Notes: generated by a model from the letters alone, not told the origin. A stretch of DNA of 64,000 nucleotides from Acidobacteriota bacterium (GCA_045862895.1 BTUO01000001.1:998890-1062889), one strand, 5' to 3'; counted from the stretch's first letter, positions 13,998 through 49,273 are shown. A program made the numbers and translations.

Positions 13998-14008
13998 GGA
14001 GAACTTCG

Positions 14009-22146: not shown

Positions 22147-22500
22147 ATGCGACGGCTCCGGCACAGGCTCGCGTGGTTGGCGGCACTCGCCGCCTTGGCG
22201 TTTGCCGGAGTCCTTCCGCTCTGTGGCGACTGCGGATCGTGCGGCTCGTCGTGCCCGGGTCGCGACGCCTGCCACGAGGTGGCGACGTGGCTGGATGGCC
22301 CGTCGTGCTGCGCATCGGCTGGCCCGGCGGCCGCTGCCGATGCGGCGAGCCAACTCGCGGCCAAAGTCGTGGCGCCGCTGCCCGAAGTCGCCGCCACGCT
22401 CCCGCGCGTCGACGGCCACGTATTGGTCGGCCAGCGCGCGACCTGTCAGGTTTCCCGCACGCTCGATCGCTGTACCCTCTTCTCCTCCTTCCTCATTTGA
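22147..22500 (+). CDS. small secreted Cys-rich protein (CGDCGSCGSSCPGRDACHE...SCCAS)
   Basis: N-terminal signal-like hydrophobic segment. Third-position GC is about 85%. It lies upstream of the cupredoxin operon. Weak RBS and overlapping alternative ORFs keep confidence low. Confidence 0.3.
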   Translation: MRRLRHRLAWLAALAALAFAGVLPLCGDCGSCGSSCPGRDACHEVATWLDGPSCCASAGPAAAADAASQLAAKVVAPLPEVAATLPRVDGHVLVGQRATCQVSRTLDRCTLFSSFLI

Positions 22501-24601: not shown

Positions 24602-24605
24602 GGCG

Positions 24606-25619: not shown

Positions 25620-25623
25620 AGCC

Positions 25624-31531: not shown

Positions 31532-34500
31532 TCATGCCACGCTCGGCTCGAGCTCCGGTTCCGAACCGGGCTGCGGCTCGGGGTTCTTTTCGATCTCGCG
31601 CCGCCGCCAGAGCTTGTAGATGGCCGGATAAACCAACAGCTCGAGGGCGAACGAGGTGATGAGGCCGCCGATCATCGGGGCGGCGATTCGTTTCATGACG
31701 TCCGACCCGGCCGAGGTCGACCACATGATCGGCAGGAGGCCCATGAAGGCCGCCGCCACCGTCATCATCTTGGGTCGGGCCCGCTTGACGGCGCCGTGGA
31801 CGATGGCCTCGTCGACCTCGCCCTCGTTCCGCAGCAGGCCGCGCCGCTTGGCGTCGTCCCAGGAGAGGTCGAGGAACAGCAGCATGAAGACGCCGGTCTC
31901 GGCGTCGAGGCCGAGGAGAGCGATCATGCCGACCCAGGCGGCGATCGAGACGTTGTAGTCGAGCAGCCAGAACAGCCAGATCGCGCCGATTGCGGAGAAC
32001 GGGACCGCCAGCATCACCACCGTGGCCTTGAAGCTGGAGCGGGTGTTCGCGTAGAGGAGGGCGAAGATCAACACCAGCGTGATCGGCACGACCACCTTGA
32101 GGCGCTCGCGGACGCGGATCATGTTCTCGTACTGCCCGCTCCAGGTGAGCGAATACCCAGCCGGGAGCGTTACTGCGCTTTCGACCCGTCGCTTGGCCTC
32201 CTCGACATAGCTGCCGACGTCGCGCCCGGCGATGTCCACGTAGACGTAGCCGGCGAGGAACCCGTTCTCGTCACGAAGCATGGACGGCCCCTGGAGCAGC
32301 CGGACGTCGGCGAGTTGGGCGAGAGGTACCTGGGCCATCGTGGGGGTCGGCACCAGCACGCGACCGAGCCTCTCGGGGTCGTCCCGCAGCTCGCGTGGAT
32401 ACCGGACATTCACCGGATAGCGGGCGCGGCCCTCGATGGTGGTGGTGACGTTCTCGCCGCCGATCGCCGCCGCGATCACCATGTGCAGGTCGTCGATGAC
32501 GAGACCGTAGCGAGCGAGCTGGTCGCGGCGCGGAGAAATGTCGAGGAAGTAGCCGCCGGCGACTCGTTCGGCGTAGGCCGACCGCGTGCCGGGTACGTCG
32601 CGGACGGCCTGTTCGATCTCGGCGCCGAGACGTTCGATCTCGGCCAGGTCGGCGCCGAAAACCTTGATCCCCACGGGAGTGCGGACTCCCGTCGTCAACA
32701 TGTCGATGCGGGCCTTGATCGGCATCGTCCAGGCGCTGGTCACGCCGGGGCTCGCCAGGGCGCGGTTCATCTCGTCGACGAGCTCGTCCCAGGAGATGTG
32801 GTCGGGCCAGAAGGGGCGGAATGCAGGCTTCGTCCAATCGGGCCAGTCCGAGTACCACCGCGGCTTGGCTCGCCACTCGTCCTCGGGTTTCAGCACTACC
32901 GTGGTCTCGAACATCGAAAACGGAGCCGGGTCGGTGGACGTGTCGGCGCGCCCCGCCTTGCCGAAGACCCTCTCCACCTCCGGGAAGGCGCGCAGCACCT
33001 TGTCCTGGGCAATCAACAGCTCCTGCGCCTGGGCCACGGAGATGCCCGGAAGCGTCGTAGGCATGTGAAGAATGGTGCCTTCGTTGAGTGGCGGCATGAA
33101 CTCGGAGCCGAGGGTGAAATAGGCCGGTACGGAGATCGCGACCAGAAGCAGCGCCGCACCGATGACCTTCTTGGGGTGGCGGAGGACGAAGCGACAGGCC
33201 GGCTCGTAGACGCGGAAGATCGAGCGGCTGATCGGATGACGCTCTTCGGCATGGTAGGTACCGACGAGGGCGCCCGTCGCCAGCCGAGCCAGCCACCGCG
33301 GCCGGAAGCTGAACGGATCGATCCGGGCGAACATCATGCGCAGCGCGGGGTCGAGGGTGATGGCTAGGAGCGCGGCAATGGCCATCGCCAGGTTCTTCGA
33401 GAAGGCGAGGGGCTTGAAGAGGCGCCCCTCCTGGTCGACGAGGGCGAACACCGGCAGGAAAGCGACGGCGATGACCAGGAGCGAAAAGAAGACTGATGGA
33501 CCCACCTCCATCAGGGCCTCCAGGCGGACCTGATGAAAGCTCCCCTTGCGACCACCGACCTGCCAGTGGTGAATCTTGTTGTAGGCGTTCTCGACCTCGA
33601 CGATCGCTCCATCCACGAGGACGCCGATCGAGATGGCGATTCCTGCGAGCGACATGATGTTGACCGTCAGGCCCATGAGGTACATGGGGATGAAGGCGAG
33701 CAGCACCGAGATCGGAATGGTCAGAATGGGAACGACCGCGGAAGGCACGTGCCAGAGGAAGAAGAGGATCACCAACGAGACGATGATCATCTCGATCACC
33801 AGCTCGTGCTTCAGCGTGCCGATCGCGCGTTCGATCAGCGTCGAGCGGTCGTAGGTGGTGACCACTTCGACGCCCGCGGGGAGAGACTGCTTCAGGTCCG
33901 CCAGCTTCGCCTCGACAAGGCGGATGACGTTGAGCGCGTTCTCCCCGTGACGCATCACCACGATGCCCCCGACGGTGTCGCCTTCACCGTCGAGGTCCGA
34001 AACGCCACGGCGGATCTCGGGACCGAGCTCGATGTTCGCTACGTCGCGCAGCAGCACCGGGACGCCCCCGGGAGCGACCTTGACCACGATCTGCCCGAGG
34101 TCGTCCGTGCTCTTGGCGTAGCCACGGCCGCGCACCATGAACTCCCGCCCCGACAGCTCCAACAGGCGTCCGCCGATCTCGTTGTTCGAACGCCGCACGG
34201 CGTTGACGACCGTGTCGATCGGAAGTCCATAGGCCGCCAGCCGGTTAGGGTCGACCGTCACCTGGTACTGCCTCTGGTAGCCACCGATCGAGGCGACTTC
34301 GGCGACCCCGGGAACGGACTGCAGGGCGTAGCGCAGCGTCCAGTCCTGGTAGGAGCGCAGCTCGTCGAGCGAGTGCTTCTTCTCGCGGTCGACGAGGGCG
34401 TACTGGTAGACCCAGCCGACGCCGGTCGCGTCCGGACCGAGCTCGGTCTGGACGCCCTCGGGGAGCCGCGACTGGATCTTGGACAGATACTCGAGGACCC

Positions 34501-34822
34501 TGGAGCGTGCCCAGTAAAGGTCGGTGCCGTCCTGGAAGATCACGTAGACGTACGAGAACCCGAAGTCGGAGTAGCCGCGGATCGCTTTGACCTTCGGCGC
34601 TCCGAGCAGGTTGGCGATGATCGGGTAAGTGACCTGGTCCTCGAGGATGTCGGGAGAACGGTCCCATCGCGAGTAGACGATGACCTGGGTGTCGGAGAGA
34701 TCCGGCAGAGCGTCCAGTCGGATCTGCCGCAAGGTGTAGCCGGCGAGGACGATCAGGACAGCGACGGCCCCGAGCACGAGGAATCGGTTTTCGGCGGAGA
34801 AGCGGATGATGCGCTTGATCAT
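31532..34822 (-). CDS. cusA: heavy-metal efflux RND pump CusA/CzcA family
   Basis: 1096 aa. The N-terminus MIKRIIRFSAENRFLVLGAVAVLIV and overall HME-RND architecture match. The antisense ORFs 31445-33367 and 33533-34849 are rejected. Confidence 0.9.
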   Translation of the reverse strand: MIKRIIRFSAENRFLVLGAVAVLIVLAGYTLRQIRLDALPDLSDTQVIVYSRWDRSPDILEDQVTYPIIANLLGAPKVKAIRGYSDFGFSYVYVIFQDGTDLYWARSRVLEYLSKIQSRLPEGVQTELGPDATGVGWVYQYALVDREKKHSLDELRSYQDWTLRYALQSVPGVAEVASIGGYQRQYQVTVDPNRLAAYGLPIDTVVNAVRRSNNEIGGRLLELSGREFMVRGRGYAKSTDDLGQIVVKVAPGGVPVLLRDVANIELGPEIRRGVSDLDGEGDTVGGIVVMRHGENALNVIRLVEAKLADLKQSLPAGVEVVTTYDRSTLIERAIGTLKHELVIEMIIVSLVILFFLWHVPSAVVPILTIPISVLLAFIPMYLMGLTVNIMSLAGIAISIGVLVDGAIVEVENAYNKIHHWQVGGRKGSFHQVRLEALMEVGPSVFFSLLVIAVAFLPVFALVDQEGRLFKPLAFSKNLAMAIAALLAITLDPALRMMFARIDPFSFRPRWLARLATGALVGTYHAEERHPISRSIFRVYEPACRFVLRHPKKVIGAALLLVAISVPAYFTLGSEFMPPLNEGTILHMPTTLPGISVAQAQELLIAQDKVLRAFPEVERVFGKAGRADTSTDPAPFSMFETTVVLKPEDEWRAKPRWYSDWPDWTKPAFRPFWPDHISWDELVDEMNRALASPGVTSAWTMPIKARIDMLTTGVRTPVGIKVFGADLAEIERLGAEIEQAVRDVPGTRSAYAERVAGGYFLDISPRRDQLARYGLVIDDLHMVIAAAIGGENVTTTIEGRARYPVNVRYPRELRDDPERLGRVLVPTPTMAQVPLAQLADVRLLQGPSMLRDENGFLAGYVYVDIAGRDVGSYVEEAKRRVESAVTLPAGYSLTWSGQYENMIRVRERLKVVVPITLVLIFALLYANTRSSFKATVVMLAVPFSAIGAIWLFWLLDYNVSIAAWVGMIALLGLDAETGVFMLLFLDLSWDDAKRRGLLRNEGEVDEAIVHGAVKRARPKMMTVAAAFMGLLPIMWSTSAGSDVMKRIAAPMIGGLITSFALELLVYPAIYKLWRRREIEKNPEPQPGSEPELEPSVA

Positions 34823-34839: not shown

Positions 34840-36312
34840 TCAGTGCTGATGGCCGGTGTTGGCGGGCGTCGGGGCGGTGGCTCCGGCGGACGGTGCGGGT
34901 GCCTGCGCCGCCTGCAAAGCGGCGCGCAGTTTCGATTCGGAGTCGAGAAGGAAGTTGGCACGGGTCGCTACGCGTTCGCCTTCACGAACTCCCGACGAAA
35001 TGACGACCCTGCCGGCGCCACGAAGTCCGACCTGGACATCGCGCGGCTCGAAGGTTCCGGGCTCGAGCTCGACGAAGACCACCTGCCTCAGTCCGGTGTC
35101 GATCACCGCGTCCTCGGGGACGGCGATGCCATCGGCCGCCTCCAGGTCGGCCGTGACGTCGACGAACATGCCGGGCTTCAGGTGACCGTCGAGATTGCCC
35201 AGCTCGAGGCGCACCTTGAGAGTCCGGCTCTCGGCCGAGAGCGTCGGGTAGATGAAGGTGACCTCGGCAGGCATGACGTGTCCGGCCTCGTAGGGCAGGT
35301 GGACATCCGCCCGCTGTCCGACGCGCAAGAGCCGCGCTTCGTTCTCGTAGAACTCGGCCTCCACCCAGACATGGGAGAGGTCGGTGAGCGTGAAGAGCTC
35401 CATACCGGGCTGAACCTCCATTCCTTCGAGAACCTCCTTGGTGCTCACGAAGCCGGAGGCCGGTGCGACCAGCGTGACCGTGCGTTGCGCCTTGCCCGTG
35501 CGCTCGATGGTCTCGAGGAAGCTCTGTGGCACGTCGAACAGCTCCAGACGTCGGCGCGACGATGCGGCGAGCTCTTCGCCGCCTTCTCTGACTTCGGGAA
35601 TGTTGGAGCTCGCGAAGCGGGCGGCCGACTGCCGGGCGCGCAGGTACTCTTCCTGCGAGGCGAGCAACTCCGGCGAGTAGATGGCGAGAACCGGCTGGCC
35701 TCGGCGCACCAGTTGCCCGGTGAAGTTGACGTGGAGTTTCTCCACCCAACCGGCGATCTTGGTGTGGACGTGGCGAACCAGCCGCTCATCCGGCAGCACC
35801 AGACCCACGGTCCGGGTGGAGCTGGCGAGATGCTCGCGCGCCGCGACCGCGGTGCGGACGCCGGCGAGCTGGATGCCGCCGGCGTTTACGGAGACGGTCG
35901 CCAGCCCCGGAACCGAGCTCGCCGGGCGCGAGGCTTCGTCTGCATAGACCGGCACGTACTCCATCCCCATCGAGTCTTTCGCCGGCACCGGCGAGGTCAC
36001 CGACGGGTCCATCGGGCTGCGGTAGAAGAGGATGCGACGCTGTTCGGCGCCCGCGGCGCTGCCGGACCGGTCCGCGGCGTGCTCGCTCTTAGGAATCGGC
36101 ACCAGCTTCATGCCGCAGATCGGGCAGTCGCCCGGCTTGTCGGAGGTGTAGGTCGGGTGCATCGGGCAGTGCCAGCCGGCCCCCTCCTCCGAGTGCTCGG
36201 CGCCGCAGCCGAGAAACGGCAGGGCGACGAGGAGCAACCCGAGCACGAGCAGCGTGCGCCGGGCCGCGGCGGAGCGGGCGAGAGAATGGAACGGGTTGCG
36301 GAACATGGTCAC
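34840..36312 (-). CDS. cusB: RND efflux membrane fusion protein CusB/CzcB with N-terminal CPMHP...CPICGM metal-binding domain
   Basis: Signal/lipobox region, then WHCPMHPTYTSDKPGDCPICGMKL and a periplasmic adaptor beta-barrel region. Confidence 0.8.
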   Translation of the reverse strand: MTMFRNPFHSLARSAAARRTLLVLGLLLVALPFLGCGAEHSEEGAGWHCPMHPTYTSDKPGDCPICGMKLVPIPKSEHAADRSGSAAGAEQRRILFYRSPMDPSVTSPVPAKDSMGMEYVPVYADEASRPASSVPGLATVSVNAGGIQLAGVRTAVAAREHLASSTRTVGLVLPDERLVRHVHTKIAGWVEKLHVNFTGQLVRRGQPVLAIYSPELLASQEEYLRARQSAARFASSNIPEVREGGEELAASSRRRLELFDVPQSFLETIERTGKAQRTVTLVAPASGFVSTKEVLEGMEVQPGMELFTLTDLSHVWVEAEFYENEARLLRVGQRADVHLPYEAGHVMPAEVTFIYPTLSAESRTLKVRLELGNLDGHLKPGMFVDVTADLEAADGIAVPEDAVIDTGLRQVVFVELEPGTFEPRDVQVGLRGAGRVVISSGVREGERVATRANFLLDSESKLRAALQAAQAPAPSAGATAPTPANTGHQH

Positions 36313-37640
36313 TCCTTCACGCCGGCCAGGAGTGACCCGGTACCGGCCATGCGGTCGAATGCGACGGAAGCGATGAATCGGTCGGCCTCGCGGCGCGCGA
36401 GCGCGACGCGGGCTTCGAGCCAGAGGTTGAAGTCCTCGATGACGGTGGAGAAATCTCCCCGGCCGGTGAGGTAGCCGGCACGGGCGGCGGCGAGGGCGGC
36501 GCTCGTCTGGGGCAGGATGCCCTGGCGATAACGGTTCGCCTGCTCGTCGGCGTTCTGCCAGGCGGCGAGGAGGCTCGCGGCCTCGCCGCGCACCATTGCC
36601 TCGGCGTCCGCCTGCTCTCGGCGCGCGGCCTCGAGCTCGTACTCGGCAGCGCGCAGCATCGGCAGCTGCTTCTGGCGGCGCCAGATCGGCAGCTCGACGC
36701 CGATGCCGAGCAGGACGACGGGGTCGTAGCCCCCGCGCGCGGCGAGCCCGGCATTGGCCGAGAAGTTGGGCTTGAGCTCGAGCCGGGCGAGCGCGACCCG
36801 ACGCTCGGCGGCGATCACGGTCGCCTGCGCCCGCCGGACCTCGGCGGAGCCGGCGAGAGCGAGCCGCTCGGCATCGGAGCCGATCGGCCGGCTGCCCGGC
36901 AGGAGCCGGGTGTCCGCGAGGGGTGCGTCGCCGGGGCGATCGAGCCAGCGGTTGAGCTCGGCGACCAGGGTTCGCCGCTCCATGGCCAGGTCGCTCACCA
37001 ACTCAGCGATGCGCAGCTCCTGGACCTGGATCTTGAGCACCCCTTCCTGGTCTCCCTCGCCCGCGGAGTAGCGACTGTGGGCGATCTCTTCGAGCAGGTC
37101 GACCAACTCGTCGGCCGCGGCGAGCGCCTCGCGCTCGCGATCGAGTGCCCAGACCCGCGCGTAGAGAGAGCGAACCTCGGCGGCGACCTGCCGCTCGAGC
37201 GCGGCGAGATCGGCCCGCGCCCGCTCGGTTTCGGCCCGCGCGACGTCGCGCGCGGCGGCGCGTTTGCCGGGGTACGGGAGGCCCTGTCGGGCCCGGACGC
37301 CGAGCATCGACATCTCCTCCGAGCCGACAGTCGGCTCGAAGCCAATGTTCTGGAGCTCTGCCTCGACCATCGGGTCGGGCAGGGCGCCGGCGGGCGCCTC
37401 CATCTCGCGCCGCGCCTCGATCTCGGCCCGCTTCGCGGCGAGCGCCGGGGCTCGCGACAGCGCCTCGGCGACGAGCGCCTCGAGCTCCGCGACAGGCTCA
37501 TCGGAGAGTAGCCCCGGCGCCGAGGTGAGGTCGGCCGTCCGAGATTCGGTTGGGGTTGCTGCGGGCGCGGGCTCGGCCTGCCCGAAGGCCGGCGCCTGGA
37601 GCGCCACCAAGAGGGTGAGCGCTGGGAGAATGCGGTCCAT
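36309..37640 (-). CDS. cusC: outer membrane factor CusC/CzcC (TolC family)
   Basis: Signal peptide MDRILPALTLLVALQAPAFG and the two-repeat OEP architecture. Confidence 0.75.
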   Translation of the reverse strand: MDRILPALTLLVALQAPAFGQAEPAPAATPTESRTADLTSAPGLLSDEPVAELEALVAEALSRAPALAAKRAEIEARREMEAPAGALPDPMVEAELQNIGFEPTVGSEEMSMLGVRARQGLPYPGKRAAARDVARAETERARADLAALERQVAAEVRSLYARVWALDREREALAAADELVDLLEEIAHSRYSAGEGDQEGVLKIQVQELRIAELVSDLAMERRTLVAELNRWLDRPGDAPLADTRLLPGSRPIGSDAERLALAGSAEVRRAQATVIAAERRVALARLELKPNFSANAGLAARGGYDPVVLLGIGVELPIWRRQKQLPMLRAAEYELEAARREQADAEAMVRGEAASLLAAWQNADEQANRYRQGILPQTSAALAAARAGYLTGRGDFSTVIEDFNLWLEARVALARREADRFIASVAFDRMAGTGSLLAGVKE

Positions 37641-37710
37641 GAGGTCCTCCTCGACCATTCCGGATGGAGCCCGCCTCTATTGGCGGGGTCCGCTCAGGCG
37701 TGGAGGGGCC

Positions 37711-38079
37711 TCAATTCCTCAGGACACAGGTCCTCGCCAGGCAGTCGAGAGGAGGGTGCGGTTGCCTCCGGTCGGGCAGGAATGGAATGGCGACCGGCAG
37801 CAGGGCGATCGCAGCGGTGGAGCCGCCGACGATTGCCACGATCGTCAATGGGTCCCGCTCCGGCACCACGGGCGCCGCGGCTCGCGCCGTGGGTGCGTGC
37901 TCACAGCAGTCCATCGAGACCGTCGCCGGGGCCGGCGGGCAGCAGTCGTGCCCGCCCGCTCCGCCCCCGTCCATCATCGGGCAGTCGGCCATGGCACATG
38001 CCTCGAACGCCGCCGCGAGGCCCGGCAGGAGCAGGGCCACGGCGACGGCGAGTGCGAGGAGCTTGGCGAACGGCCTCAT
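37711..38079 (-). CDS. small secreted Cys-rich protein, paralog A (leader gene of cusCBA)
   Basis: Signal peptide, then CAMADCPMMDGGGAGGHDCCPPAPATVSMDCCEH...LDCLARTCVLRN. Paralogous to 39253-39624, with conserved Cys positions and a shared LDCLxxxCVLR C-terminus. Confidence 0.5.
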   Translation of the reverse strand: MRPFAKLLALAVAVALLLPGLAAAFEACAMADCPMMDGGGAGGHDCCPPAPATVSMDCCEHAPTARAAAPVVPERDPLTIVAIVGGSTAAIALLPVAIPFLPDRRQPHPPLDCLARTCVLRN

Positions 38080-38117
38080 GGACGGTTCCGGAAGCGGGTC
38101 TCGGTGGCGAGTTCGTG

Positions 38118-38606
38118 TCAGCCGACGGTCACGGTGACCAGCATGTGGTTGGTCTCGCCATTGGAGTGATCCATGCCGAAGAAGTCGTAGTCGTGCCGGC
38201 CCATCGGCGCGTTCGCACCGTGGCAGCCGTACTCGCCGCCGAAGTCTTCGAAGCAGTAGATCCCGTCGTTGGGCGTCCGGTCACCGTGCGTGCCGTCGTC
38301 GTACAGGGTCATGCGGCCACCGTTCATCATCGAGCCGTGGCCGTTGGGCCGCATGTAGTCGATGCGAGCCGTGTGGCCCAACGCGGGCCGACCCGCGAGG
38401 TCGACGAGGTGCGCCTCGAAGCGCGTGCTGGCCCCCGTCCCGTGATCGCGCGAGACGGTCGTGCCGTTGACGACCGTGCCGGCGACCGACACGGTGGCCT
38501 TCTGCAGCACGATCGAGCTGCTCGTAGGCTGGGTGGGGCTCGAGCCATCGCAGGCCGAAACGGCGAGGCCGGCGACGAGAGAGAGGGTGAGGAGCTTGGT
38601 GTGCAC
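38118..38606 (-). CDS. His/Met-rich lipoprotein, putative periplasmic metal binding
   Basis: Lipobox LAVSAC, with many His, Met and Asp residues (HGSMMNGGRM, HGDRTPNDG, HGANAPMGRHDYDFFGMDHSNGETNHM). Confidence 0.45.
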   Translation of the reverse strand: MHTKLLTLSLVAGLAVSACDGSSPTQPTSSSIVLQKATVSVAGTVVNGTTVSRDHGTGASTRFEAHLVDLAGRPALGHTARIDYMRPNGHGSMMNGGRMTLYDDGTHGDRTPNDGIYCFEDFGGEYGCHGANAPMGRHDYDFFGMDHSNGETNHMLVTVTVG

Positions 38607-38660
38607 GATCGGTCCTTTCTTCGCGGATTCCGCGGGCGCGACGGCGAGAGAGCTCGCCGA

Positions 38661-39053
38661 TCAGTTGTTCATCGAATCGTCGGGGTCGGCGAGCCGGACG
38701 ATGTCGCCCTTCTCGACCTTGCCGTCGAGCACGGTCGCCTGCGCGAAGTGCTCGTCGACGATCGCGTCGACCCTCACCTTGCCGACCTTCTCGCGATGGA
38801 AGCGGACCCCTTGCTTGGGATTGCCGCTCCGGGCGCGGGTTACCCGGACGACGTCGAGCACCTGGCCCGGGGCGGCGCCCTCGGCGGTCCCGATGCAGAG
38901 GTAGATCCCTTCGGCCGATGCTTCGATGACGCTGCCGGCCATGAAGACGGTGTGCCGGATGCCCGGGTTCTCGGCGCGGGCGGTCGAAACGGCGAGAAGG
39001 GTCGAAACAGCGAACAGAGAGGCGGCGAATGCGAGCTTCGAGATCTTGGTCAT
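38661..39053 (-). CDS. secreted hypothetical protein
   Basis: Signal peptide MTKISKLAFAASLFAVSTLLAVSTARA. No recognisable motif. Confidence 0.35.
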   Translation of the reverse strand: MTKISKLAFAASLFAVSTLLAVSTARAENPGIRHTVFMAGSVIEASAEGIYLCIGTAEGAAPGQVLDVVRVTRARSGNPKQGVRFHREKVGKVRVDAIVDEHFAQATVLDGKVEKGDIVRLADPDDSMNN

Positions 39054-39252
39054 GATGAGCTCCTCCGCGAGCGGGCGGACGGCGTGCGTTGTCGGTCGCT
39101 CCCCGTGGGGTGCGATCCCTGGTCCTCGATGGGTGGCGCGGGTGGCGCCGGTCGTCGTCTTGCGAGTCAGGCTCGTCCAGAACATGAGACACCTCGTCGA
39201 ACACCGCAGGCATGCACCACCATGGTGCAGCCCTACAGGCGCGACGTGGCGC

Positions 39253-39624
39253 TCAGATCCGCAGGACGCAGCTTTGACTGAGGCAGTCGAGGGCGCGGGA
39301 AGGGCGGGCCTTGGCCGGCCAGGAGATCTCCGCTTCCAGAGACCCTCCCGGATCCGGCGCGTCGACGCTCGCGAGCGCAGGGGCGGCGGGCTTCTCGGCC
39401 ACCCGGGTCGGCGTAGCCGGTGCTTCGACCCGTTGCTCGCAGCACGGTGCCGTCAGGCTGGTATCGGCGGCCGGGCAGCAGTCGTGGCCGGCCTGCTCCG
39501 CTGGGGCTCCGCACTCGACCATCGGGCAGTCGGGCATACCGCACGGCGAGAGCGAGCTGGCCAGGGCCGGCAGCAGCAGCGCGATCGAAAGCGCGGATGC
39601 GAGAGTGCGGAAGAGACTTCTCAT
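39253..39624 (-). CDS. small secreted Cys-rich protein, paralog B
   Basis: MRSLFRTLASALSIALLLPALASS...CGMPDCPMVECGAPAEQAGHDCCPAADTSLTAPCCEQ...LDCLSQSCVLRI. The ATG is verified at 39622-39624. Confidence 0.5.
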   Translation of the reverse strand: MRSLFRTLASALSIALLLPALASSLSPCGMPDCPMVECGAPAEQAGHDCCPAADTSLTAPCCEQRVEAPATPTRVAEKPAAPALASVDAPDPGGSLEAEISWPAKARPSRALDCLSQSCVLRI

Positions 39625-39713
39625 CTCGTCGAGACGATACGAGCCGGTCAACCGGCCAGGCCATACCCGAAAAGGTGGGTGTCGCTGGACTACGCGGGTG
39701 GCTCCCGGCACGG

Positions 39714-40370
39714 CTACGCCCTGTCCGCCCGGTGGAGGGCCATGGTGCCGAGCGGCGTGGGGATCCGGCGGGTGACCCCGACCCCCTCGAATCCTGCCTG
39801 GCGGAAGGCGTCGGCCAGGCCACCGGCGAGCTGGGGCGACGTGTTCGCGAACCCGTCGAGCCACTGGACCGGGAGGAAGAGCAGCCGCTGCAGGCAGCTC
39901 GTCGGCGGGCCCCAGTCGGCGACGTGGAGCTGCCCGCCCGGTCGGAGGACCCGATGGAGCTCGCGAGCGGCCGAGACCTTGTCCTCGACCGCCAGGTGGT
40001 GGAAGAAGAGGGTCGAGACGGCCCGATCGAAGCTGGCGTCGGGATACGGCAGTCTTGTCGCTAGACCCAGCTGCCAGGTGATCTCGACGCCGGCTTGTGT
40101 CGCCTTCTGCTCCGCCTTGGCCAGGACCTCGGCATCGCCGTCGACGCCGAAGAGCTGGAGCCCCGGGCAGCGCCGCGCCATCTCGATTGCCAGGGTCCCC
40201 GTGCCGCAGCCAAGGTCGAGCACGCGTTGGCCGGGCCGCAGCCCCGCCTGCTCGATGGTCGCGACACGGAACGTCCGCTCCCGGGTGGTCGCGGCGACCA
40301 CGCCGTCGTAGAGCGGCGTCAGCCACCGGTAGCGGAGGGCGTGGACGTAGGAAACGTCTTCTCGCGCGGT
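39714..40370 (-). CDS. class I SAM-dependent methyltransferase
   Basis: Motif I VLDLGCGTGTLAIEMA and a typical post-I acidic residue (LFGVDGD). Confidence 0.7.
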   Translation of the reverse strand, partial: TAREDVSYVHALRYRWLTPLYDGVVAATTRERTFRVATIEQAGLRPGQRVLDLGCGTGTLAIEMARRCPGLQLFGVDGDAEVLAKAEQKATQAGVEITWQLGLATRLPYPDASFDRAVSTLFFHHLAVEDKVSAARELHRVLRPGGQLHVADWGPPTSCLQRLLFLPVQWLDGFANTSPQLAGGLADAFRQAGFEGVGVTRRIPTPLGTMALHRADRA

Positions 40371-40381
40371 CATGGCGCGCC

Positions 40382-40807
40382 TCAGCTCGATCGACCCGAC
40401 GACCAGTGGACGTGGACGATGAGCCAGCGCTCGCCTCGGCGCTCGAGAACGAGGGTCTCGGTGCCGCGGGACGCCACCGGTTTTCCGTTGGACTGGCCGC
40501 TCGACTCGGTGCGCGTCAGCACGATCGCGCGGTCCGCGCCGCCGAGGACCTTGCGGTCGACGACGCGCACGTCGATCTCCGCGAGGTAGGCGAGATCGCC
40601 GTCGAGGTGATGGCTCGCGTATTCCTCGCGCGACAGCTCGGCACCGCCATGCTCGAAGATCACGACCTCGGGCGCGAGGCAATCGAGCACCGCGACCCGG
40701 TCCCCGGACTCGAGAGCCTTGCCGAAGCGCGCCGCGGCCTCGACTGCCGCTTCTTCGCCGTACGCGGCCGGTGCCAGCGCGATCAGGAGGGTCGCCGCGA
40801 CGGCGAT
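40382..40807 (-). CDS. secreted SnoaL/NTF2-like fold protein
   Basis: Signal peptide MFIAVAATLLIALAPAAYG. Length and pattern are consistent with the DUF4440/SnoaL-like family. Weak call. Confidence 0.35.
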   Translation of the reverse strand: MAVAATLLIALAPAAYGEEAAVEAAARFGKALESGDRVAVLDCLAPEVVIFEHGGAELSREEYASHHLDGDLAYLAEIDVRVVDRKVLGGADRAIVLTRTESSGQSNGKPVASRGTETLVLERRGERWLIVHVHWSSGRSS

Positions 40808-40887
40808 AAACATCCAGCGCGTCCGTGGGCCGCGCGCGAGGTGATGCCTCGCGGTCTGGCCAGCAGCCGTCCCACCGATGGGCGACG

Positions 40888-41592
40888 TCATGACGGCTGC
40901 CGCCCGGCGAGCATCGCCCGGTGCGCGGCGAGGTTCGCCTCGCTCTCGAAGTAGACGACCGCGCCGGTGGGGAGCACGCCGATCACGGCCACCGCCTTGT
41001 CGACCATGCGTCCACTCACCGGGTCCATCGCCTGGCGCGCTTCGGCGTCGGTCGCGAGGCGCTCCTTGCACATCGGGCAGCAGCCGAAGTAGGTCTTGCC
41101 GCCGACTTCGACCGGAATCTGCGGGCTGTCGAAGAGCGAGTTGTTGACCATGCAGACGAAGCGCGGATCAACCTGGCGCAGGGCCGCGGCCTCGTCGGCC
41201 GCGATCGGCGCGCCCGCCGAGGTCGGGACCGGCATCGCCGCCATTCCCCCGCCGTGGCTGCCGTGCCCCTCGTGGCCCTCGTGCTCGGACTTGGCGAGCT
41301 TCACTTCGATCGCCACGTTCTTGCCGTCCTTGGCCTCGTACATCACGACCGCGCGCGCGCCGACCGCGACGTCATCGCGCCGGGCCGCGGCGTCGCCGCG
41401 CTTGTAGGACGTCGCGTCGGTGAGCACGAACGTCTCGAGCTTCCCGTCCTTCGTTTCGAGCTGGAGCTCCGCCGCCCCGACGGCGCGCACGGTGCCCATG
41501 GCGTTATGGTGGTGTCCTTCGTGCGCGACGGCGGGGGCCCCGACGAGCGCCACGGCGGCGGCGAGTGTCCAACCGAGGGTGCTGCGGTTCAT
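40888..41592 (-). CDS. periplasmic His-rich YHS-domain copper-binding protein
   Basis: Signal peptide; HEGHHHN and HEGHEGHGSHGGG tracts; C-terminal YHS/TRASH-like KTYFGCCPMCKERL. Confidence 0.55.
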   Translation of the reverse strand: MNRSTLGWTLAAAVALVGAPAVAHEGHHHNAMGTVRAVGAAELQLETKDGKLETFVLTDATSYKRGDAAARRDDVAVGARAVVMYEAKDGKNVAIEVKLAKSEHEGHEGHGSHGGGMAAMPVPTSAGAPIAADEAAALRQVDPRFVCMVNNSLFDSPQIPVEVGGKTYFGCCPMCKERLATDAEARQAMDPVSGRMVDKAVAVIGVLPTGAVVYFESEANLAAHRAMLAGRQPS

Positions 41593-41641
41593 TCTCATTT
41601 CGACTTCTCCTTGTCTGGCTTTGGTCTACGGTCGGTTGCGG

Positions 41642-42253
41642 TCAGTGGTGAGGCGCGGTCGGAGGGGAGGAAGCGTCGTCGCCGGCAAGGAAGCGCTCCA
41701 TCTCGAGCTCCTGCTCCAGCTCGGCCCGCGAGATCGGGTTGTGACGCTTCATTTCGGCGAGCTCCGCTTCGGTGAGCGCGGGGAGCAGGCGAATGAGTTG
41801 CACGAGCTCCCAGGTCTCGGCGTCGTCCTCGGGCGAAGCGGTGCCCCAGGCCGGCATGCCGGTCAGCTTGATGCCGTTCTCGATGATCCAGAAGAGCTCG
41901 CCGTCGCTGAGCTCCTGGGTCGCGGGCGCCGTCATGTCCGGCGCCCGTGGGTAGAGGTTGCGGCCCATCTTGGTGTCGCCCTTGCCGTCGTTGCCGTGGC
42001 AGGACGCGCAATGGTCTGCCCAGTGGGTGCGGGCCGAGCGCAGCCCTTCGGGCGTCGGCAGGAGCGGGTTCCGTGCCCGCGCCGTGCTGGCGGGAATCAG
42101 CAGGCCGCGAGCGGCTCTCGCCATCACGACTTCGGCGCGGGGTGGATCTTTGCGCGCCGAGATCCCGGTGAGCGCGAACCCGATCGCAGCGACGGACGCC
42201 ACTCCGCCGACCACGGCGAAGAGGCGGACGATCCACTTACCCACCGTGCTCAT
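41642..42253 (-). CDS. membrane-anchored c-type cytochrome
   Basis: TM anchor, then the haem-binding motif CASCHG. Confidence 0.7.
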   Translation of the reverse strand: MSTVGKWIVRLFAVVGGVASVAAIGFALTGISARKDPPRAEVVMARAARGLLIPASTARARNPLLPTPEGLRSARTHWADHCASCHGNDGKGDTKMGRNLYPRAPDMTAPATQELSDGELFWIIENGIKLTGMPAWGTASPEDDAETWELVQLIRLLPALTEAELAEMKRHNPISRAELEQELEMERFLAGDDASSPPTAPHH

Positions 42254-43601
42254 GGCTCGGCTCCTTTTCCGGCGCCGCCGGGTCGACCCGCCACGACACC
42301 GTGCCCGGCGGGTAGTCGTACCAGCCCGGATCCTCGTAGCTGGTGATCCCTTCGCGGATCTTCAGCACCGTGAACATGCCGCCCATCTCGATCGGTCCGA
42401 ACGGCCCCGTGCCGGTCATCATCGGCAGCGTGTTGGGCAGGCCGGGCATGTGCTCGCTGTGCGCCGCGTGCTCGGCCATGCCGGAGGAGCCCATCGCCAT
42501 GTAGCCCTCTACCAGGCGCGAGATCTCACGCGAGACGCCCTGCTGATCGACGCCGATCATGTTCGGGATGTCGTGGCCCATCGCGTTCATCGTGTGGTGC
42601 GTCTTGTGGCAGTGGAGCGCCCAGTCGCCGGGGTTGTCGGCGACGAACTCGAAGGCGCGGGTGGTGCCCGGCATGACGTTGATCGTCGTCTCCGGCCACC
42701 AGGCCGAGCGCGGGATCTGGCCGCCGTCGGTCTCCGTGACCCACATCTGGTGACCGTGGAGGTGGATCGGGTGGCTCGTCATGCTGATGTTGGCGAGCCG
42801 GATGCGGGTCCGATCGCCGAGCCGGCAGACCAGCGCGTCGGTGCCGGGGAACGCCTTGCCGTTGAAGGTGAAGAGATTGAAGTCGAGCATCACGGACGGG
42901 TCGGGCGTCTTCGTTCCCGGTCGAATGAAGAACATGTGCGGGAAGATGCAAAAGTCGCGGTCGATCTGCCGCTCGGGGCGCTTCGGGTGGATGATGAAGA
43001 AGCCCATCATCCCCATCGCCATCTGGACCATCTCGTCGGCGTGCGGGTGGTACATGTGCGTCCCGTGCTGTCGCAGCGTGAACTCGTAGACGTAGGTCTC
43101 GCCCGGTTGGATCTGCGGCTGGTTCAACCCGCCGACGCCGTCCATGCCCGCCGGCAGCAGGATGCCGTGCCAGTGGATCGTGGTGTGTTCCGGCAGCCGG
43201 TTCTCGACGAACAGGCGGACGCGATCGCCCTCGACCGCCTCGATCGTGGGGCCCGGCGACGTGCCGTTGTAGCCCCAGGCGTTGACCTTCATGCCGGGCG
43301 CGAACTCGACCTCGACGGGCTCGGCAACGAGATGGAACTCCTTCACTCCGCCATTCATGCGGAAGGGGAGGGTCGGTACGTTTGGCGTTATGACCGGTGT
43401 ATAGGGCAGGCCGCGCGCGGCGCGTCTCGCCGCCGGAGCGGGGGGCGGCGTCGCGGGCGGATCGGCGGGCTGGCCGTGCCCCGCGTGCGGAGACTGAGCG
43501 AGGGCCTCGCCTCCGCCCAGGGAGAGGCGGGCGCGATCGAGCAGGGCCGCGCCCGCCGCGAGCAGGGCGGCACGAGAGAGCCAGGTGCGGCGCGAAATCA
43601 T
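42237..43601 (-). CDS. multicopper oxidase (CueO/CopA/CuoB-like), Tat-secreted
   Basis: Tat motif SRRTWLSRAALLAAGA. Copper ligands HWHG, HPHADEMVQMAMGMMG, HPIHLHGH and HCHKTHHTMNAM. Confidence 0.85.
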   Translation of the reverse strand: MISRRTWLSRAALLAAGAALLDRARLSLGGGEALAQSPHAGHGQPADPPATPPPAPAARRAARGLPYTPVITPNVPTLPFRMNGGVKEFHLVAEPVEVEFAPGMKVNAWGYNGTSPGPTIEAVEGDRVRLFVENRLPEHTTIHWHGILLPAGMDGVGGLNQPQIQPGETYVYEFTLRQHGTHMYHPHADEMVQMAMGMMGFFIIHPKRPERQIDRDFCIFPHMFFIRPGTKTPDPSVMLDFNLFTFNGKAFPGTDALVCRLGDRTRIRLANISMTSHPIHLHGHQMWVTETDGGQIPRSAWWPETTINVMPGTTRAFEFVADNPGDWALHCHKTHHTMNAMGHDIPNMIGVDQQGVSREISRLVEGYMAMGSSGMAEHAAHSEHMPGLPNTLPMMTGTGPFGPIEMGGMFTVLKIREGITSYEDPGWYDYPPGTVSWRVDPAAPEKEPSHEHGG

Positions 43602-45037: not shown

Positions 45038-45453
45038 GGCGCGCCGTGCTCCTTCTCGACCGGGACGAGCGCCATCCCGCACTTCGGGCAGGCTCCAGGT
45101 TCGGAGGAGCGCACCTCGGGGTGCATCGGGCAGGTGTAGGCGACCGCCTGGGACTCAGCGCCGGGTGCGGATTCGTGATGCTCATGCCCGGATGGCGCCG
45201 CCTCGGGCGCTTCCGAGTTGGCCGTGGCGCGCGGCGGTACGTACGGCGACCGGGGAGATTCGGCGGCGTCAGGGTTCGCCGGATTCTGGGCGCGACCCGC
45301 CGTGGGTGGCGGGGTGACGGTGCATCCGGCGAGCAGCAGCAGCGACGCCAAGGCGAAAACGGGGGCGGTCGGCACGGGGCGGCCTCCTCGATCGTGGAGT
45401 GCGGAGCAACCCCACCGGCAGCGCCGGCGGGGCACGGAGACAACTGTCGCCAC
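45034..45453 (-). CDS. lipoprotein with CusB-N-terminal-like CPMHPE...CPKCGM metal-binding domain
   Basis: Lipobox [39 protein letters not shown]. The start codon is uncertain (probably an internal GTG). Confidence 0.45.
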   Translation of the reverse strand: MATVVSVPRRRCRWGCSALHDRGGRPVPTAPVFALASLLLLAGCTVTPPPTAGRAQNPANPDAAESPRSPYVPPRATANSEAPEAAPSGHEHHESAPGAESQAVAYTCPMHPEVRSSEPGACPKCGMALVPVEKEHGAP

Positions 45454-45482
45454 GCCCTACGAGGGCGCGGCGACGCTCCGTC

Positions 45483-45905
45483 TCACACGCGAAGCGGCAG
45501 GACGAACGCGGGGGGGGGTGCGTGCGGTGGCGAGGCCGCCACCAGCCAAGGTGGAGCCGGCGTGAGGCTGGCCAGGTCGAGCGCGGGGGAGCGCGTGGCG
45601 AAGGCGCTGGCGGCGGCGAGCAGGCTCGCTCCGCGCTGCGCCTCCGGTGCTCGCGCCTCGAGTGTCCCCGGGGGGAGCCGGGGATCGCCGGCGCAGCAGC
45701 AGTCGCTGCTCCAGGCCCCGTCGGGGCTCGGCTGCGCAGGCGCCTCGACCGACTCGTGGCATTCGCCTGCCACATCGGTTGCGTGCGTGGCCCGCGGCAT
45801 GGGCATCTCGCAGATGCAGAAGCCGAGGGCCAGCGCCGCGATCGCTGCGAGGGCGGTCGTTGCCGCGAGGCGGCGTACGGTGGGCGAGGCGGCGAACAAG
45901 CTCAT
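45483..45905 (-). CDS. putative secreted Cys-rich protein (CICEMPMP...ECHE...DCCCAGD)
   Basis: Signal-like N-terminus and a Cys cluster reminiscent of the small Cys-rich paralogs. Weak evidence only. Confidence 0.25.
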   Translation of the reverse strand: MSLFAASPTVRRLAATTALAAIAALALGFCICEMPMPRATHATDVAGECHESVEAPAQPSPDGAWSSDCCCAGDPRLPPGTLEARAPEAQRGASLLAAASAFATRSPALDLASLTPAPPWLVAASPPHAPPPAFVLPLRV

Positions 45906-45940
45906 GCCGGCGCAGAGTCTGAGCCCGGGGGCGCCGCTTG

Positions 45941-48583
45941 TCAATTCGACCCTGACGAAACCGAGGGGCCGCTCGCCGGGCTCGCAGGCGGCGCTCCGAG
46001 CGCTCCGCCGCCGACTTCGACGCGGAAGGCGCGCAGACGCAGCGCGTTGGCGATGACCGACACGGAGCTCAGGCTCATCGCAGCAGCCGCCAGCATGGGC
46101 GACAGTAGCCAGCCGGTGAAGGGATAGAGCAGCCCGGCCGCGATGGGCACTCCGGCGGCGTTGTAGGCGAAGGCCCAGAAGAGGTTCTGCCGGATGTTGC
46201 GCATCGTGGCGCGCGAGAGCTTGCGGGCGCGGGCGATGCCCCGCAGATCGCCGCGCACCAGCGTCACGCCTGCGCTCTCCATCGCGACGTCGGTGCCGGT
46301 GCCCATCGCGATGCCGACCTCGGCGCGGGCGAGCGCGGGGGCGTCGTTGATGCCGTCTCCGGCCATGGCGACGAAGCGACCTTCGGCCTGGAGCCGCTCG
46401 ACCTCGCGCACCTTCTGGTCGGGAAGTACCTCGGCGACGATCGTGTCGATGCCGAGGGTCCTACCCACCGCCTCCGCCGTCTTTCGGCTGTCGCCGGTCA
46501 GCATGACGATGCGGATCCCTTCGCCGTGCAGGGAGCGAAGTGCCTCGACCGTCGTGGCCTTGATCGGGTCCGCGACCCCCAACAGGCCGGCGAGGCGGTC
46601 TCCAACCGAGAGGTACATCACCGTCTGGGCTTCGCCCCGGAGTCGTTCCGCCTCGTCACGAAGCGAGGTGACGTCGACGCCGCTTTCCTCCATGAGCTTG
46701 AGGTTGCCCAGCGCGACACGCTTGCCGGCGACGAGCCCGGCCACGCCCTTGCCAGTCAGTGACTCGAAATCGACGACCTCGGCGGCCTCCAGACCGCGTT
46801 CACTCGCTCCCGCGAGGATCGCCGCCGCCAGCGGATGCTCGCTGCCGCGCTCGATCGCCGCCGCGAGCCGCAGGACCTCGTTCTCGTCGAATCCGGTTGC
46901 CGGTCGCAGGGTGACGAGCCTGGGCTTGCCCTCGGTGAGGGTGCCGGTCTTGTCGACCACCAGCGTGTCGACCTTGCGCAACAGCTCGATCGCTTCGGCG
47001 TTACGGAACAGGACCCCCATCGAGGCCGCCTTGCCCGTCGCCACCATGATCGACATCGGCGTCGCGAGCCCGAGAGCGCACGGGCAGGCGATGATGAGCA
47101 CGGCGACCGCATTCACCAGGGCGTGGGCCAGACGTGGCTCAGGTCCCAGAACCGCCCACGCCGCGAAGGTCAGGGCCGCGATCGCCAGGACGGCGAGGAC
47201 GAACCAGCCGGAGATCTGGTCGGCGAGCTTCTGGATCGGCGCGCGGCTGCGCTGCGCCGCGGCGACCATGGCGACGATTCGCGCGAGCAGGGTCTCGGAG
47301 CCGACCTTCTCGGCGCGCATGACGAAGCCGCCGGCGCCGTTGATTGTGGCGCCGACGACAGGGTCGCCAGGTCCCTTCGAGACCGGCATCGGCTCGCCCG
47401 AGACCATCGACTCGTCGATCGCGCTGGTGCCCTCGAGCACGACGCCGTCGACCGGAACCTTCTCTCCGGGGCGAACGCGCAACCGGTCGCCTACCGCGAC
47501 GAGCTCGAGCGCCACGTCCTCTTCGACGCCATCCTCGCGCAGCCGGCGGGCGCTCTTGGCTGCGAGTCCCAGCAGCTTGCGGATCGCCGCGCCGGTCGCG
47601 CCCCGTGCCTTGAGCTCGAGCACCTGCCCGAGCAGGACGAGCGCCGTGATCACCGCCGCCGCCTCGAAGTAGACGGGTACGTGGCCGTTGGCGTCGCGGA
47701 AGGTCGCCGGGAAGATCCCGGGCACCAGGGTCGCCACCAGGCTGAAGCCGAATGCCACGCCGACGCCGAGACCGATCAGCGTGAACATGTTGAGGCTGCG
47801 GTGGCGCACCGAGGCCACCGCGCGTTCGTAGAACGGCCAGGCGGCCCAGGTACAGACGGGGATCGCCAAGAGCATCTCGAGCCAGAGCCGGGTCGATGCC
47901 GACAGGGTGCTCGCGACCGGCGTGCCCGGGAGGAAGGCGTCGCCCATGACCAGCACGAGCGTGCCCAGGGCGAGCGGCACGGAGACCCAGAAGCGGCGCC
48001 GCATGTCGAGGTACTCCGCGCTCGGCCCCTCCTCGAGCGTGGCTACGCGCGGCTCGAGCGCCATGCCGCAGATCGGGCAGCTGCCCGGCGCGTCGCGCAC
48101 GATCTCCGGGTGCATCGGGCAGGTCCACTCGGTCCTGGTGGCGAGCGGCGCCGGCATCACCGGCTCCAGGGCCATGCCGCACTTCGGGCAGGCTCCGGGC
48201 CGGTCGCTTTCGACCTCGGGGTGCATGGGGCAAGTCCACTTCGTGCCGCCCGGCGAGGCTTCCGCCGGTGCGGCCTTGGGTTGCGGGGCGTCGCCGGAAC
48301 CGGCAGGCTGCAGGTGAGGCTCGGTCGCTGCCTTTGCCGAGGTCGTCGCCGCCGGCTTCCCCGCGAGCGGGTAGCGCGTCGGATCGGCGTCGAACTTCGC
48401 CTTGCAACCCGCCGAGCAGAAGTGGACGACCTCGCCACCGCGCTCGGAACGGTGCTTCGAGGTCGCGGGATCCACCGTCATGCCGCAAACCGGGTCCAGG
48501 GCGCCCGTGGCGGTCGGCTGCGTGGTCGTCGAATGCGTCGGGTGAGAATGCTCGTGGCGGTTGGGGTCGTCGTGTGCGCTCAT
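45941..48583 (-). CDS. copA: Cu(I)/Ag(I)-translocating P1B-type ATPase with N-terminal YHS domain and two CPMHPE/CPxCGM metal-binding modules
   Basis: YHS motif CGMTVDP...HFCSAGC. Modules [21 protein letters not shown] and [21 protein letters not shown]. Transport motif CPC ([14 protein letters not shown]), phosphorylation site DKTGTLT, and a C-terminal [10 protein letters not shown]. The alternative-frame and antisense ORFs across this region are rejected. Confidence 0.9.
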
Positions 48584-49208: not shown

Positions 49209-49273
49209 CACGCGACGATACTCCCCTGGCGAAGACCGTCCGCCGCAGGACTGCCTGAGGCAGGGCAGGCGAG

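Follow-up and report, generated by a model that had tools for sequence, protein, structure and literature searches.

Two paralogous Cys-rich exported proteins in front of cusCBA of an Acidobacteriota bacterium: candidate metal-sensing leader peptides with a stop-to-start RNA hairpin

A stretch of 64,000 nucleotides (nt) from an Acidobacteriota bacterium (GCA_045862895.1 BTUO01000001.1:998890-1062889), in the following called the window, encodes two small Cys-rich proteins, A and B, in front of a cusCBA gene set. With moderate confidence we regard A and B as leader peptides that act in cis, are exported during their translation and sense metal; they would control the translation of the downstream cus genes via an RNA hairpin that reaches from the stop codon of the leader to the start codon behind it. 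By analogy, they are most likely functional counterparts of CutF, CruR, CusD and SilD. The coordinates of all features are given in Table 1.

An earlier note on this DNA, made from the sequence alone, had described two open reading frames (ORFs) for secreted proteins of about 120 amino acids (aa), and both are present exactly where it had placed them. The GC contents at codon positions 1/2/3 (0.72/0.59/0.85 for A and 0.69/0.64/0.81 for B) are lowest at the second position and follow the same pattern as in the confident genes of the window, which has a GC content of 68.7%. The third-position statistics therefore speak for coding. B is the ATG-initiated 3' portion of a longer stop-to-stop frame, the 5' extension of which is without coding signature (GC content at third positions, GC3, 0.53). 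Compared with the orthologues in locus L001, the ratio of non-synonymous to synonymous changes (pN/pS) is 0.34 for A as well as for B. For A it amounts to 0.13 over the signal and Cys part and to 0 in the C-terminal motif, and orthologues of A are 98-64% identical. Both proteins align end to end with 38% identity (BLASTP E=1e-14), and A and B are true paralogous genes. Protein A is deposited as GMU64600.1 of the metagenome-assembled genome (MAG) Acidobacteriota bacterium AMXMBFR36 and is labelled 'hypothetical protein'.

The signal peptides which had been ascribed to both proteins are predicted from a basic n-region, a hydrophobic core of 18-20 residues, an AxA-like end and an N-terminal helix in the AlphaFold2 (AF2) model. 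In A two basic residues are followed by a 15-residue Kyte-Doolittle maximum of 2.68, and the AF2 helix covers residues 3-28 with a predicted local distance difference test (pLDDT) of 92-96. L16, L18, P19 and L21 are invariant in close relatives of A. The signal is followed by a putative metal-binding block, an Ala/Pro-rich spacer and a C-terminal motif. The shared pattern noticed earlier (C28, C33-P-M, H44-D-C-C-P, C58-C59 and a terminal LDCLxxxCVLR[NI]) was recovered; the accompanying count of 9-10 Cys did not stand, as A has eight and B nine.

Residue conservation was counted over an alignment (A2) of 32 diverse family sequences. C28, C59 and R121 are invariant, while P19, C33, C46, C47, P48, C58 and L120 are kept in at least 90% of the members. 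The mean pairwise identity is 0.35 for the signal, 0.37 for the Cys block, 0.19 for the spacer and 0.48 for the last 14 residues, which are the most conserved segment and show no length variation. The C-terminal consensus reads PLDxLAQxC[IV]LRI-stop, with position -5 alternating between Cys and His (xC[IV]LRI versus HAVLRL, HSVLRL and LHILRV). The spacer of 44-53 residues consists of 26% Ala and 18% Pro and is conserved in length, not in sequence. In proteins with a total length of 113-134 aa, the CC motif and the C-terminus are 60-69 residues apart (median 63, standard deviation 1.6). With the family alignment as input, AF2 returned a predicted template modelling score (pTM) of 0.29 and pLDDT values of about 49-65 beyond the N-terminal helix (49-64 in the spacer); no globular fold, beta-barrel or other domain was found in this model, which was computed without metals.

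Across the lineages the invariant Arg at position -2 is encoded by AGG, AGA, CGG, CGA and CGC, and Leu by CTG or CTC. The use of five different codons for one invariant Arg indicates selection on the C-terminal peptide. The 12 coding nt before the stop are GTCCTGCGGATC in B and ATCCTCAGAATC in locus L009. From the synonymous variation of the last codons across the lineages we conclude that the C-terminal motif is selected as a peptide and the sequence just after it as RNA. As a side observation, the rare codon AGG encodes four of the seven Arg in leader A compared to 4.5% of the Arg codons in 23 genes of the window. For the Arg at -2 most lineages use one of the rare codons AGG, AGA and CGA, which could add to pausing near the stop codon.

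That RNA folds into a hairpin in silico. Behind A the segment UGAGGCCCCUCC (37702-37713), which comprises the stop codon and an anti-Shine-Dalgarno (anti-SD) sequence, pairs with the Shine-Dalgarno (SD) sequence GAGGAGG (37646-37652) and with CUCA, which ends in the A of the cusC AUG (37640). The SD is sequestered in the minimum free energy (MFE) fold of -38.6 kcal/mol. The start of cusC at 37640 was set by the GAGGAGG SD and a 443-aa orthologue. In every lineage whose DNA could be read the layout is the same: UGA, a CCUCC-type anti-SD within 3-12 nt, a variable GC-rich hairpin, and GAGGAGG located 5-7 nt 5' of the AUG of the gene for the outer membrane factor (Pfam OEP). When each sequence is folded alone, one closing helix is obtained, in which SD and anti-SD pair and whose ends are the U of UGA and the A of AUG. 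The same closing helix is found in nine A-type lineages and in B, and even the most divergent member, with a gap of 102 nt, keeps it. It was also recovered from an alignment (A7) of both arms with exact sequences in 10 rows. The same order of UGA, anti-SD, hairpin and SD is seen in locus L009 and in the short contig L008 (P0050), for which the junction only was read.

The closing helix is 95.8% paired compared to 39-55% in controls with slid partners, the controls being computed for the whole structure, and four of nine pairs show changes on both sides. For pairing between the SD region and the 16 nt that begin with the stop codon, the probability is 0.58 for A, 0.89 for B and 0.70-0.79 for other lineages, while seven control intergenic regions of the window gave 0-0.21. 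An Rfam scan of 36000-46500 revealed no known RNA over the hairpins; two sub-threshold small RNA matches lie elsewhere.

The genomic context was read in 11 lineages, namely the window and ten others whose proteins are 30-45% identical to A. Genes for OEP, CusB with an HMBD domain, and CusA follow the family gene on the same strand in all 11, and in nine of them directly, with 70-118 nt between leader and OEP gene. Besides the window the direct lineages are P0009, P0041, P0043, P0054, P0052, P0062, P0068 and P0059; in P0062 the contig ends inside the gene after OEP. The leader is the first operon gene in L017, L018, L021 and the contig of P0054. In L020 the gene order is methyltransferase, a single B-like leader (P0038), a 126-aa gene and cusC. 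The linkage to cusCBA is the family's one constant neighbourhood feature, and the co-occurrence in other genomes which the earlier note had proposed to check is seen in every lineage examined.

In the window A lies immediately 5' of the OEP, CusB-like and CusA-family genes, as had been stated. B does not adjoin the OEP gene; it precedes two genes for small secreted proteins, which are followed by A. No terminator-like site was detected between B and A in a terminator search of the region, and A and B are two leaders within one extended cus operon. The pump has the motif SIGVLVDGAIVEVEN in its fourth transmembrane segment, without DFG. A DFG in this segment is typical of heavy-metal efflux pumps for divalent cations.

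Homologues beyond this replicon exist. An exhaustive hidden Markov model (HMM) search of 1.84 billion cluster representatives yielded 34 clusters at E<=1e-3. Word-indexed searches gave close relatives only, all annotated as 'hypothetical protein' in MAGs of Thermoanaerobaculia/Acidobacteriota, and Acidobacteriota/Thermoanaerobaculia is also the origin wherever the sources name an organism. None of the 32 members matches a Pfam family at E<=1, PF11162 included. A and B as well as two other ORFs of the window, C and D (see below), have neither a Pfam nor an NCBIfam match at E<=1 (the 153-aa form of D none at E<=0.001), and no solved structure matched the family in a profile search of the PDB. 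A tblastn search with A against 72,556 plasmids gave no match, and megablast of the cus region against plasmids gave distant CusA segments only. A profile search of a 5.8-billion database, in which the best 8000 word-sharing candidates were scored, returned the family alone and no member with a Pfam domain. With a narrower alignment one GTDB genome could be located, and a DNA-pattern scan of metagenomes gave 7 loci, mostly copies of lineages already found. The family is genuinely rare and unannotated, which agrees with its earlier description as new-looking; a relationship to CusF or CopK, named at the time as the finding that would speak against it, is apparent neither from the sequence nor from a fold.

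A mechanism that would connect these features can be outlined as follows. The leader would be translated, and its very hydrophobic signal would carry the nascent chain to SecYEG. When the ribosome stands at the last codons ([C/H]x[IV]LR[I]-UGA), the Cys block about 63 residues back would be just exposed on the periplasmic side, as this distance is approximately the span of ribosomal tunnel and translocon according to quoted tunnel and membrane-span estimates. Without metal the cysteines would oxidise or fold, translocation would pull the chain, termination would be fast, and the hairpin would re-form and hide the SD of cusC. Binding of Cu(I)/Ag(I) to the thiolates would delay release at the conserved C-terminal peptide. 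The paused ribosome would then cover the 12 nt of the stop and anti-SD segment, which would free GAGGAGG and the AUG of cusC and allow translation of cusC and cusBA. By analogy alone we infer that metal is bound, that the ribosome pauses or is arrested at the C-terminal motif, in which direction the regulation works, and that Sec and the signal recognition particle are required.

Several observations weigh against such a leader function. We know of no arrest peptide which resembles C[IV]LRI, and arrest at this motif is purely our inference. The hallmark RAPP or PPP is missing from the stalling position, and RAPP occurs in none of the 32 members; 10 of the 32 have a PP pair among their last 15 residues and 20 have one among their last 20. 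Of the two proteins of the window A passes the proline filter for CutF-like proteins (HPPLDCLARTCVLRN) and B does not. No sequence homology to DUF2946/CutF was detected with Pfam (32 members), NCBIfam (A and B) or the profile search. The hairpin is compatible as well with mere translational coupling in which nothing is sensed, and C113 and C118 near the C-terminus could alternatively bind metal in the mature protein. The covariation of the helix comes from few independent lineages, in which SD, stop and start are constrained anyway. In P0061 about 0.8 kb separate the leader from the OEP gene, and the AUG on which the hairpin of B closes is not the start of a conserved protein.

The known devices that come nearest are the CutF-like proteins, which include CutF of Rhodobacter capsulatus, CusD, SilD and CopL of Xanthomonas (PMC8456105, PMC9973294, 10.1101/2025.02.05.636593). 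CutF-like and DUF2946 proteins are exported and have less than 150 aa; a conserved distance separates their Cys/His motif from an arrest-like motif at the C-terminus (PMC9973294, PMC9426467). CutF-like genes head metal operons with the OEP of cus/czc/sil as the commonest 3' neighbour, and CusD/SilD of Cupriavidus metallidurans have been placed among them (PMC9973294). CutF acts in cis; Cu on the nascent periplasmic motif prolongs stalling, which melts an SD-hiding stem-loop (PMC9973294, 10.1101/2025.02.05.636593). The arrest-like motifs are RAPP in CruR and PPP in CutF, which ends with GPPPRL-stop (PMC9973294, PMC9426467, 10.1101/2025.02.05.636593).

A and B resemble the CutF-like proteins in having about 120 aa, a Sec-type signal and a Cys motif at a fixed distance from a conserved C-terminal motif. 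Size, predicted signal and distance to the OEP gene, as given above, agree with the operational filters for CutF-like proteins (Ozturk et al. 2023, PMC9973294), whereas the proline filter selects only part of the family. Likewise the gene lies immediately 5' of metal-homeostasis genes with a short gap and an SD-hiding stem-loop, the latter predicted in silico for A and B, and the ending [IV]LR[I]-stop resembles that of CutF in being Arg, a hydrophobic residue and the stop. In contrast to the CxxxC of CutF, the motifs of A and B are C-x4-C, HDCCP and CC, without detectable sequence similarity. A terminal PPP is missing, the PP pair of some members being 13-20 residues from the end, and the metal motif is about 63 residues away from the C-terminus versus 45 in CutF. 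A and B are from Acidobacteriota, the CutF-like proteins from Pseudomonadota/Bacteroidota.

With CruR (Bp2923) and DUF2946 (PF11162) the family has in common that an upstream ORF opens copper operons and that its product is exported and not expected to accumulate. DUF2946 proteins have a CXXC, RAPP three residues from the end and a spacing of 45+-2. The spacing in the family of A and B is conserved as well, though at another value (60-69 from CC to the end). It is a telling parallel that the length of the spacer is conserved, because the spacing of DUF2946 is both conserved and functionally important (Roy et al. 2022, PMC9426467). Since the HMM does not match, CXXC and RAPP are missing and the spacing is about 63 instead of 45, A and B were not filed in DUF2946; by analogy they most probably represent a sequence-unrelated variant of the same kind of device. 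The logic of CruR, in which Rho terminates over a gap of 162 nt and Cu relieves arrest, is opposite to what an efflux pump needs.

SecM, VemP and MifM are described in the literature as exported leaders whose C-terminal segment contacts the ribosome and whose stalling melts an SD-hiding hairpin; they monitor translocation activity and no metal, and have other arrest sequences. CzcI of C. metallidurans is small, located directly 5' of czcC and a proposed metal-sensing regulator; it is His-rich, not Cys-rich, and was compared by its description only. Ozturk et al. cite it as a CutF-like protein without a proline motif (PMC9973294).

Nascent-chain sensing of periplasmic copper is demonstrated for CutF and CruR only, both proteobacterial and both with proline-based arrest. 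As a tentative extension, to which we give clearly less credit than to the leader function itself, A and B may end in a proline-independent arrest or termination-pausing peptide ([C/H]x[IV]LR[ILV]-UGA), which relays the periplasmic Cu(I)/Ag(I) status through translocon and ribosome and opens the hairpin for the RND (resistance-nodulation-division) pump. If true, transmembrane nascent-chain sensing would have been solved a second time, in Acidobacteriota and with unrelated sequences, and the family would provide a new candidate arrest sequence and a short system of about 75 nt for the extracytoplasmic metal control of RND-pump translation. The same layout with another C-terminal motif would mean that the principle is wider than the DUF2946 family and a PP filter suggest. 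Together with the PPP-containing family of ORF D and CutF, A and B would then point to a shared release-inhibiting element of Arg, a hydrophobic residue and the stop. Such genes are annotated as 'hypothetical' or are missed, and the present ones are located on a conjugative metal-resistance island.

Among the alternatives the one that survives best, though we regard it as unlikely, is a function as Cu(I)/Ag(I) chaperones or buffers for CusB/CusC: A and B would be stable proteins of the periplasm or tethered to the membrane, analogous to CusF in function, and the hairpin would merely couple translation. An export signal, six conserved N-terminal Cys accompanied by His and Met, and the strict linkage to cusCBA would all suit a chaperone. 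The Cys/His switch near the C-terminus behaves like a metal ligand, and a metal-dependent fold is possible, as AF2 ignores metals. CusF and CopK are likewise small periplasmic proteins encoded with copper efflux genes. However, CusF, whose gene lies between cusC and cusB, has an OB (oligonucleotide/oligosaccharide-binding) fold with a Met/His/Trp site, and A and B match neither CusF (PF11604) nor CopK nor any solved structure. About 40% of the mature chain is unconserved Ala/Pro spacer of which the length alone is conserved, the strongest conservation is found in the last residues before the stop, and the hairpin is poorly explained by a chaperone. A different small secreted protein, that of 130 aa, recurs with cus operons and could itself be the chaperone. 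The earlier note had proposed a CusF analogue because A opens its operon. In E. coli, however, CusF comes second (cusCFBA), so that this argument from position is wrong and the reading is weaker; the first place corresponds to that of CusD/SilD in Cupriavidus (cusDCBAF). The leader function is favoured over a stable chaperone because no fold is predicted by AF2, the spacer is conserved in length and not in sequence, the extreme C-terminus is conserved and the hairpin sequesters the SD.

A leader that senses no metal is rather improbable; it would couple translation passively or be a small structural component associated with the pump, and its motifs would serve membrane insertion or pump assembly. 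The closing helix does lie inside the footprint of any terminating ribosome, and transcription regulators (an extracytoplasmic function (ECF) sigma factor, a response regulator, a sigma-54 activator) are encoded near several loci. What such an ORF leaves unexplained are the six conserved Cys with HDCCP, their fixed distance to the C-terminus and the last five residues, which are the best conserved ones.

Still far less probable is that the L-R-I-COOH terminus, of the type hydrophobic-x-hydrophobic, serves as PDZ ligand of an HtrA-like protease and that its metal-dependent exposure triggers proteolysis or ECF-sigma signalling as in DegS. The island indeed encodes an ECF sigma factor (48621-49301) and, 3' of cusA, a Trypsin_2+PDZ protease (28521-29894), which close relatives have in synteny. 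However, the protease is absent near distant members (L007, the P0054 contig and L021), where OEP-CusB-CusA is always there, and the idea takes up no more than a generic PDZ motif. Chance frames, of which GC-rich DNA yields many long ones, with the RNA alone being important, are effectively refuted as an explanation of A and B by the frame-specific GC3, the pN/pS of 0.34, a protein conserved down to about 30% identity with invariant Cys, and the synonymous codon turnover in the C-terminal motif.

Two further readings of the architecture were rejected. The residue before C28 is A, G or S in about half of the members and P, L, V, R or Q in the others, and no consistent lipobox of a lipoprotein could be found. 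A precursor of a ribosomally synthesised and post-translationally modified peptide, or a C-terminal sorting signal, was dropped, since OEP-CusB-CusA alone is conserved beside the family and no conserved modifying enzyme, protease or sorting gene adjoins it.

Table 1. Features of the window in the order of the cus operon, followed by ORFs C and D. Positions are counted from the first letter of the window.
Feature	Position	Strand	Description
Leader ORF B	39253-39624	-	123 aa; paralogue of A, 5' of two small secreted protein genes
B stop-to-AUG hairpin	39185..39255	-	UGAGCGCCACGUCG pairs with CGACGAGGUGUCUCA; MFE -44.2
130-aa secreted protein	38661..39053	-	real start MTKISKL; recurrent Cus-associated accessory; no Pfam/NCBIfam match
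162-aa secreted protein	38118..38606	-	ORF between the 130-aa gene and A; 85-87% conserved in L001-L004
Leader ORF A	37711-38079	-	122 aa; first gene before cusC; ORF call, GC3, orthologues, pN/pS
A residues 1-27	37999..38079	-	export signal (MRPFAK + LLALAVAVALLLPGLAAA); hydropathy, AF2 helix
A residues 28-60	37900..37998	-	Cys-rich putative metal-binding block C28-x4-C33PM...H44DCCP...C58C59
A residues 61-108	37756..37899	-	Ala/Pro-rich spacer
A residues 109-122 and UGA	37711..37755	-	motif PPLDCLARTCVLRN-stop; putative arrest/pausing peptide
A-cusC hairpin	37640..37713	-	stop codon of A to cusC AUG; SD sequestered in MFE fold
cusC-like outer membrane factor	36309..37640	-	443 aa from ATG at 37640; Pfam OEP E=1.6e-35
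cusB-like adaptor	34840..36312	-	N-terminal HMBD metal-binding domain; HlyD_D23 3e-73, HMBD 2e-13; best NCBIfam CusB
cusA-like heavy-metal RND pump	31532..34822	-	ACR_tran 8e-214; TIGR00914 CusA/CzcA 1081 bits (cutoff 701)
ORF D	45483..45944	-	153 aa (140 aa from Met14, 45483-45905); ends ASPPHAPPPAFVLPLRV-stop
ORF C	22147..22500	+	117 aa; small Cys-rich, export-like N-terminus

The two ORFs C and D had been suggested in the earlier note as more distant relatives of A and B. Such a homology is not detectable (hhalign probabilities of 2.6% for C, 0.7% and 1.9% for D; HMM E>=1), and the general architecture alone is common to them. The exact proteins are deposited as GMU64587.1 (C) and GMU64611.1 (D).

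ORF D is a genuine gene with conserved relatives and belongs to a separate family of small proteins; by its architecture it looks like a canonical CutF-like leader with a PPP motif. The members of this family (alignment A6) have a hydrophobic N-terminus, the motifs CxC, CH and CCC and the invariant end ASPPxAxPPxFVLPLRV-stop; a homologue with 38% identity is encoded in L005. The genes downstream of D encode an HMBD lipoprotein, an OEP, a multicopper oxidase and a cytochrome c. The intergenic region behind D is strongly structured (z=-3.5) and this structure starts at the stop; in the window it leaves out the core SD. A D-like ORF in L021 (5506-5754, minus strand) ends with SPPPSFERPLRI-stop and has the closing helix of stop/anti-SD and SD. 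That CutF, the D family and A/B all end with Arg, a hydrophobic residue and the stop is suggestive but does not count as evidence of common descent.

ORF C has a coding GC3 of 0.81 and is a called gene in 27 cluster members. It has neither a PP motif nor an end of Arg and a hydrophobic residue, and the intergenic region behind it shows no significant structure (z=-1.2; probability of pairing between SD and stop region 0.32). It heads a gene run (22147-26241, plus strand) that continues with a cupredoxin-like protein, a Fer4_5 (NosR/NapH-like) membrane protein and a COX2-cytochrome c fusion. CutF-like genes often precede NosR/NosZ genes (Ozturk et al., PMC9973294).

Of the two small genes between B and A, the one for the 130-aa protein has homologues in other loci, which are 56% identical after cusA in L007 (9256-9642) and 126 aa long in L020 (779-1159). 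It may be a real periplasmic accessory or a chaperone of the pump. A 174-aa ORF 3' of B was rejected in its favour: the first 44 codons of this ORF are not conserved in frame, so that the 130-aa protein is the real gene. The 162-aa protein has an NCBIfam choice-of-anchor X match of 32.4 bits (cutoff 25) over a stretch of 18 residues. In the region 39053-39255 the hairpin of B closes on an AUG at 39185, from which an ORF extends into the 130-aa gene. This ORF shares the frame of that gene in the window and in L004, overlaps its start by ATGA in L001/L003/L011/L014 and is in the third frame in L002. This ORF may be a relay upstream ORF or a relic of the A/B duplication.

The cus operon is part of a metal island, which on the minus strand comprises, in this order, genes for an ECF sigma factor, the P-type ATPase CopA, D, an HMBD lipoprotein, an OEP, a multicopper oxidase, a cytochrome c, a YHS/TRASH-like protein, a SnoaL-like protein, a methyltransferase, leader B, the 130-aa and the 162-aa protein, leader A, OEP, CusB(HMBD) and the CusA/CzcA RND pump. 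Two proteins encoded on the minus strand are candidates for further uncharacterised metal-binding proteins, a secreted His-rich protein of 236 aa with a weak TRASH/YHS-like CxxC region (40888-41598) and a 113-aa lipoprotein with HMBD domain (45034-45375). Two direct repeats (21241-21957 and 49329-50045, plus strand), which are about 90% identical, 28,088 nt apart and each carry a gene with SSB domain, bracket the whole metal island and suggest that this cargo was acquired or duplicated as a module.

The island adjoins a conjugation module (482-17877) encoding NikA/MobC, a VirD4-like coupling protein, VirB11, VirB4, TrbL, CagX/VirB9, TrbI/VirB10, ParA and ParB. As the source contig has 1.2 Mb, the element is probably an integrative conjugative element and not a plasmid. 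Very large genes are located on the minus strand at 50114-63010, which encode proteins of 1863 and 561 aa without Pfam match, 1398 aa (NERD and Ser/Thr kinase) and 475 aa; with this block the element seems to carry a defence system or one of unknown kind.

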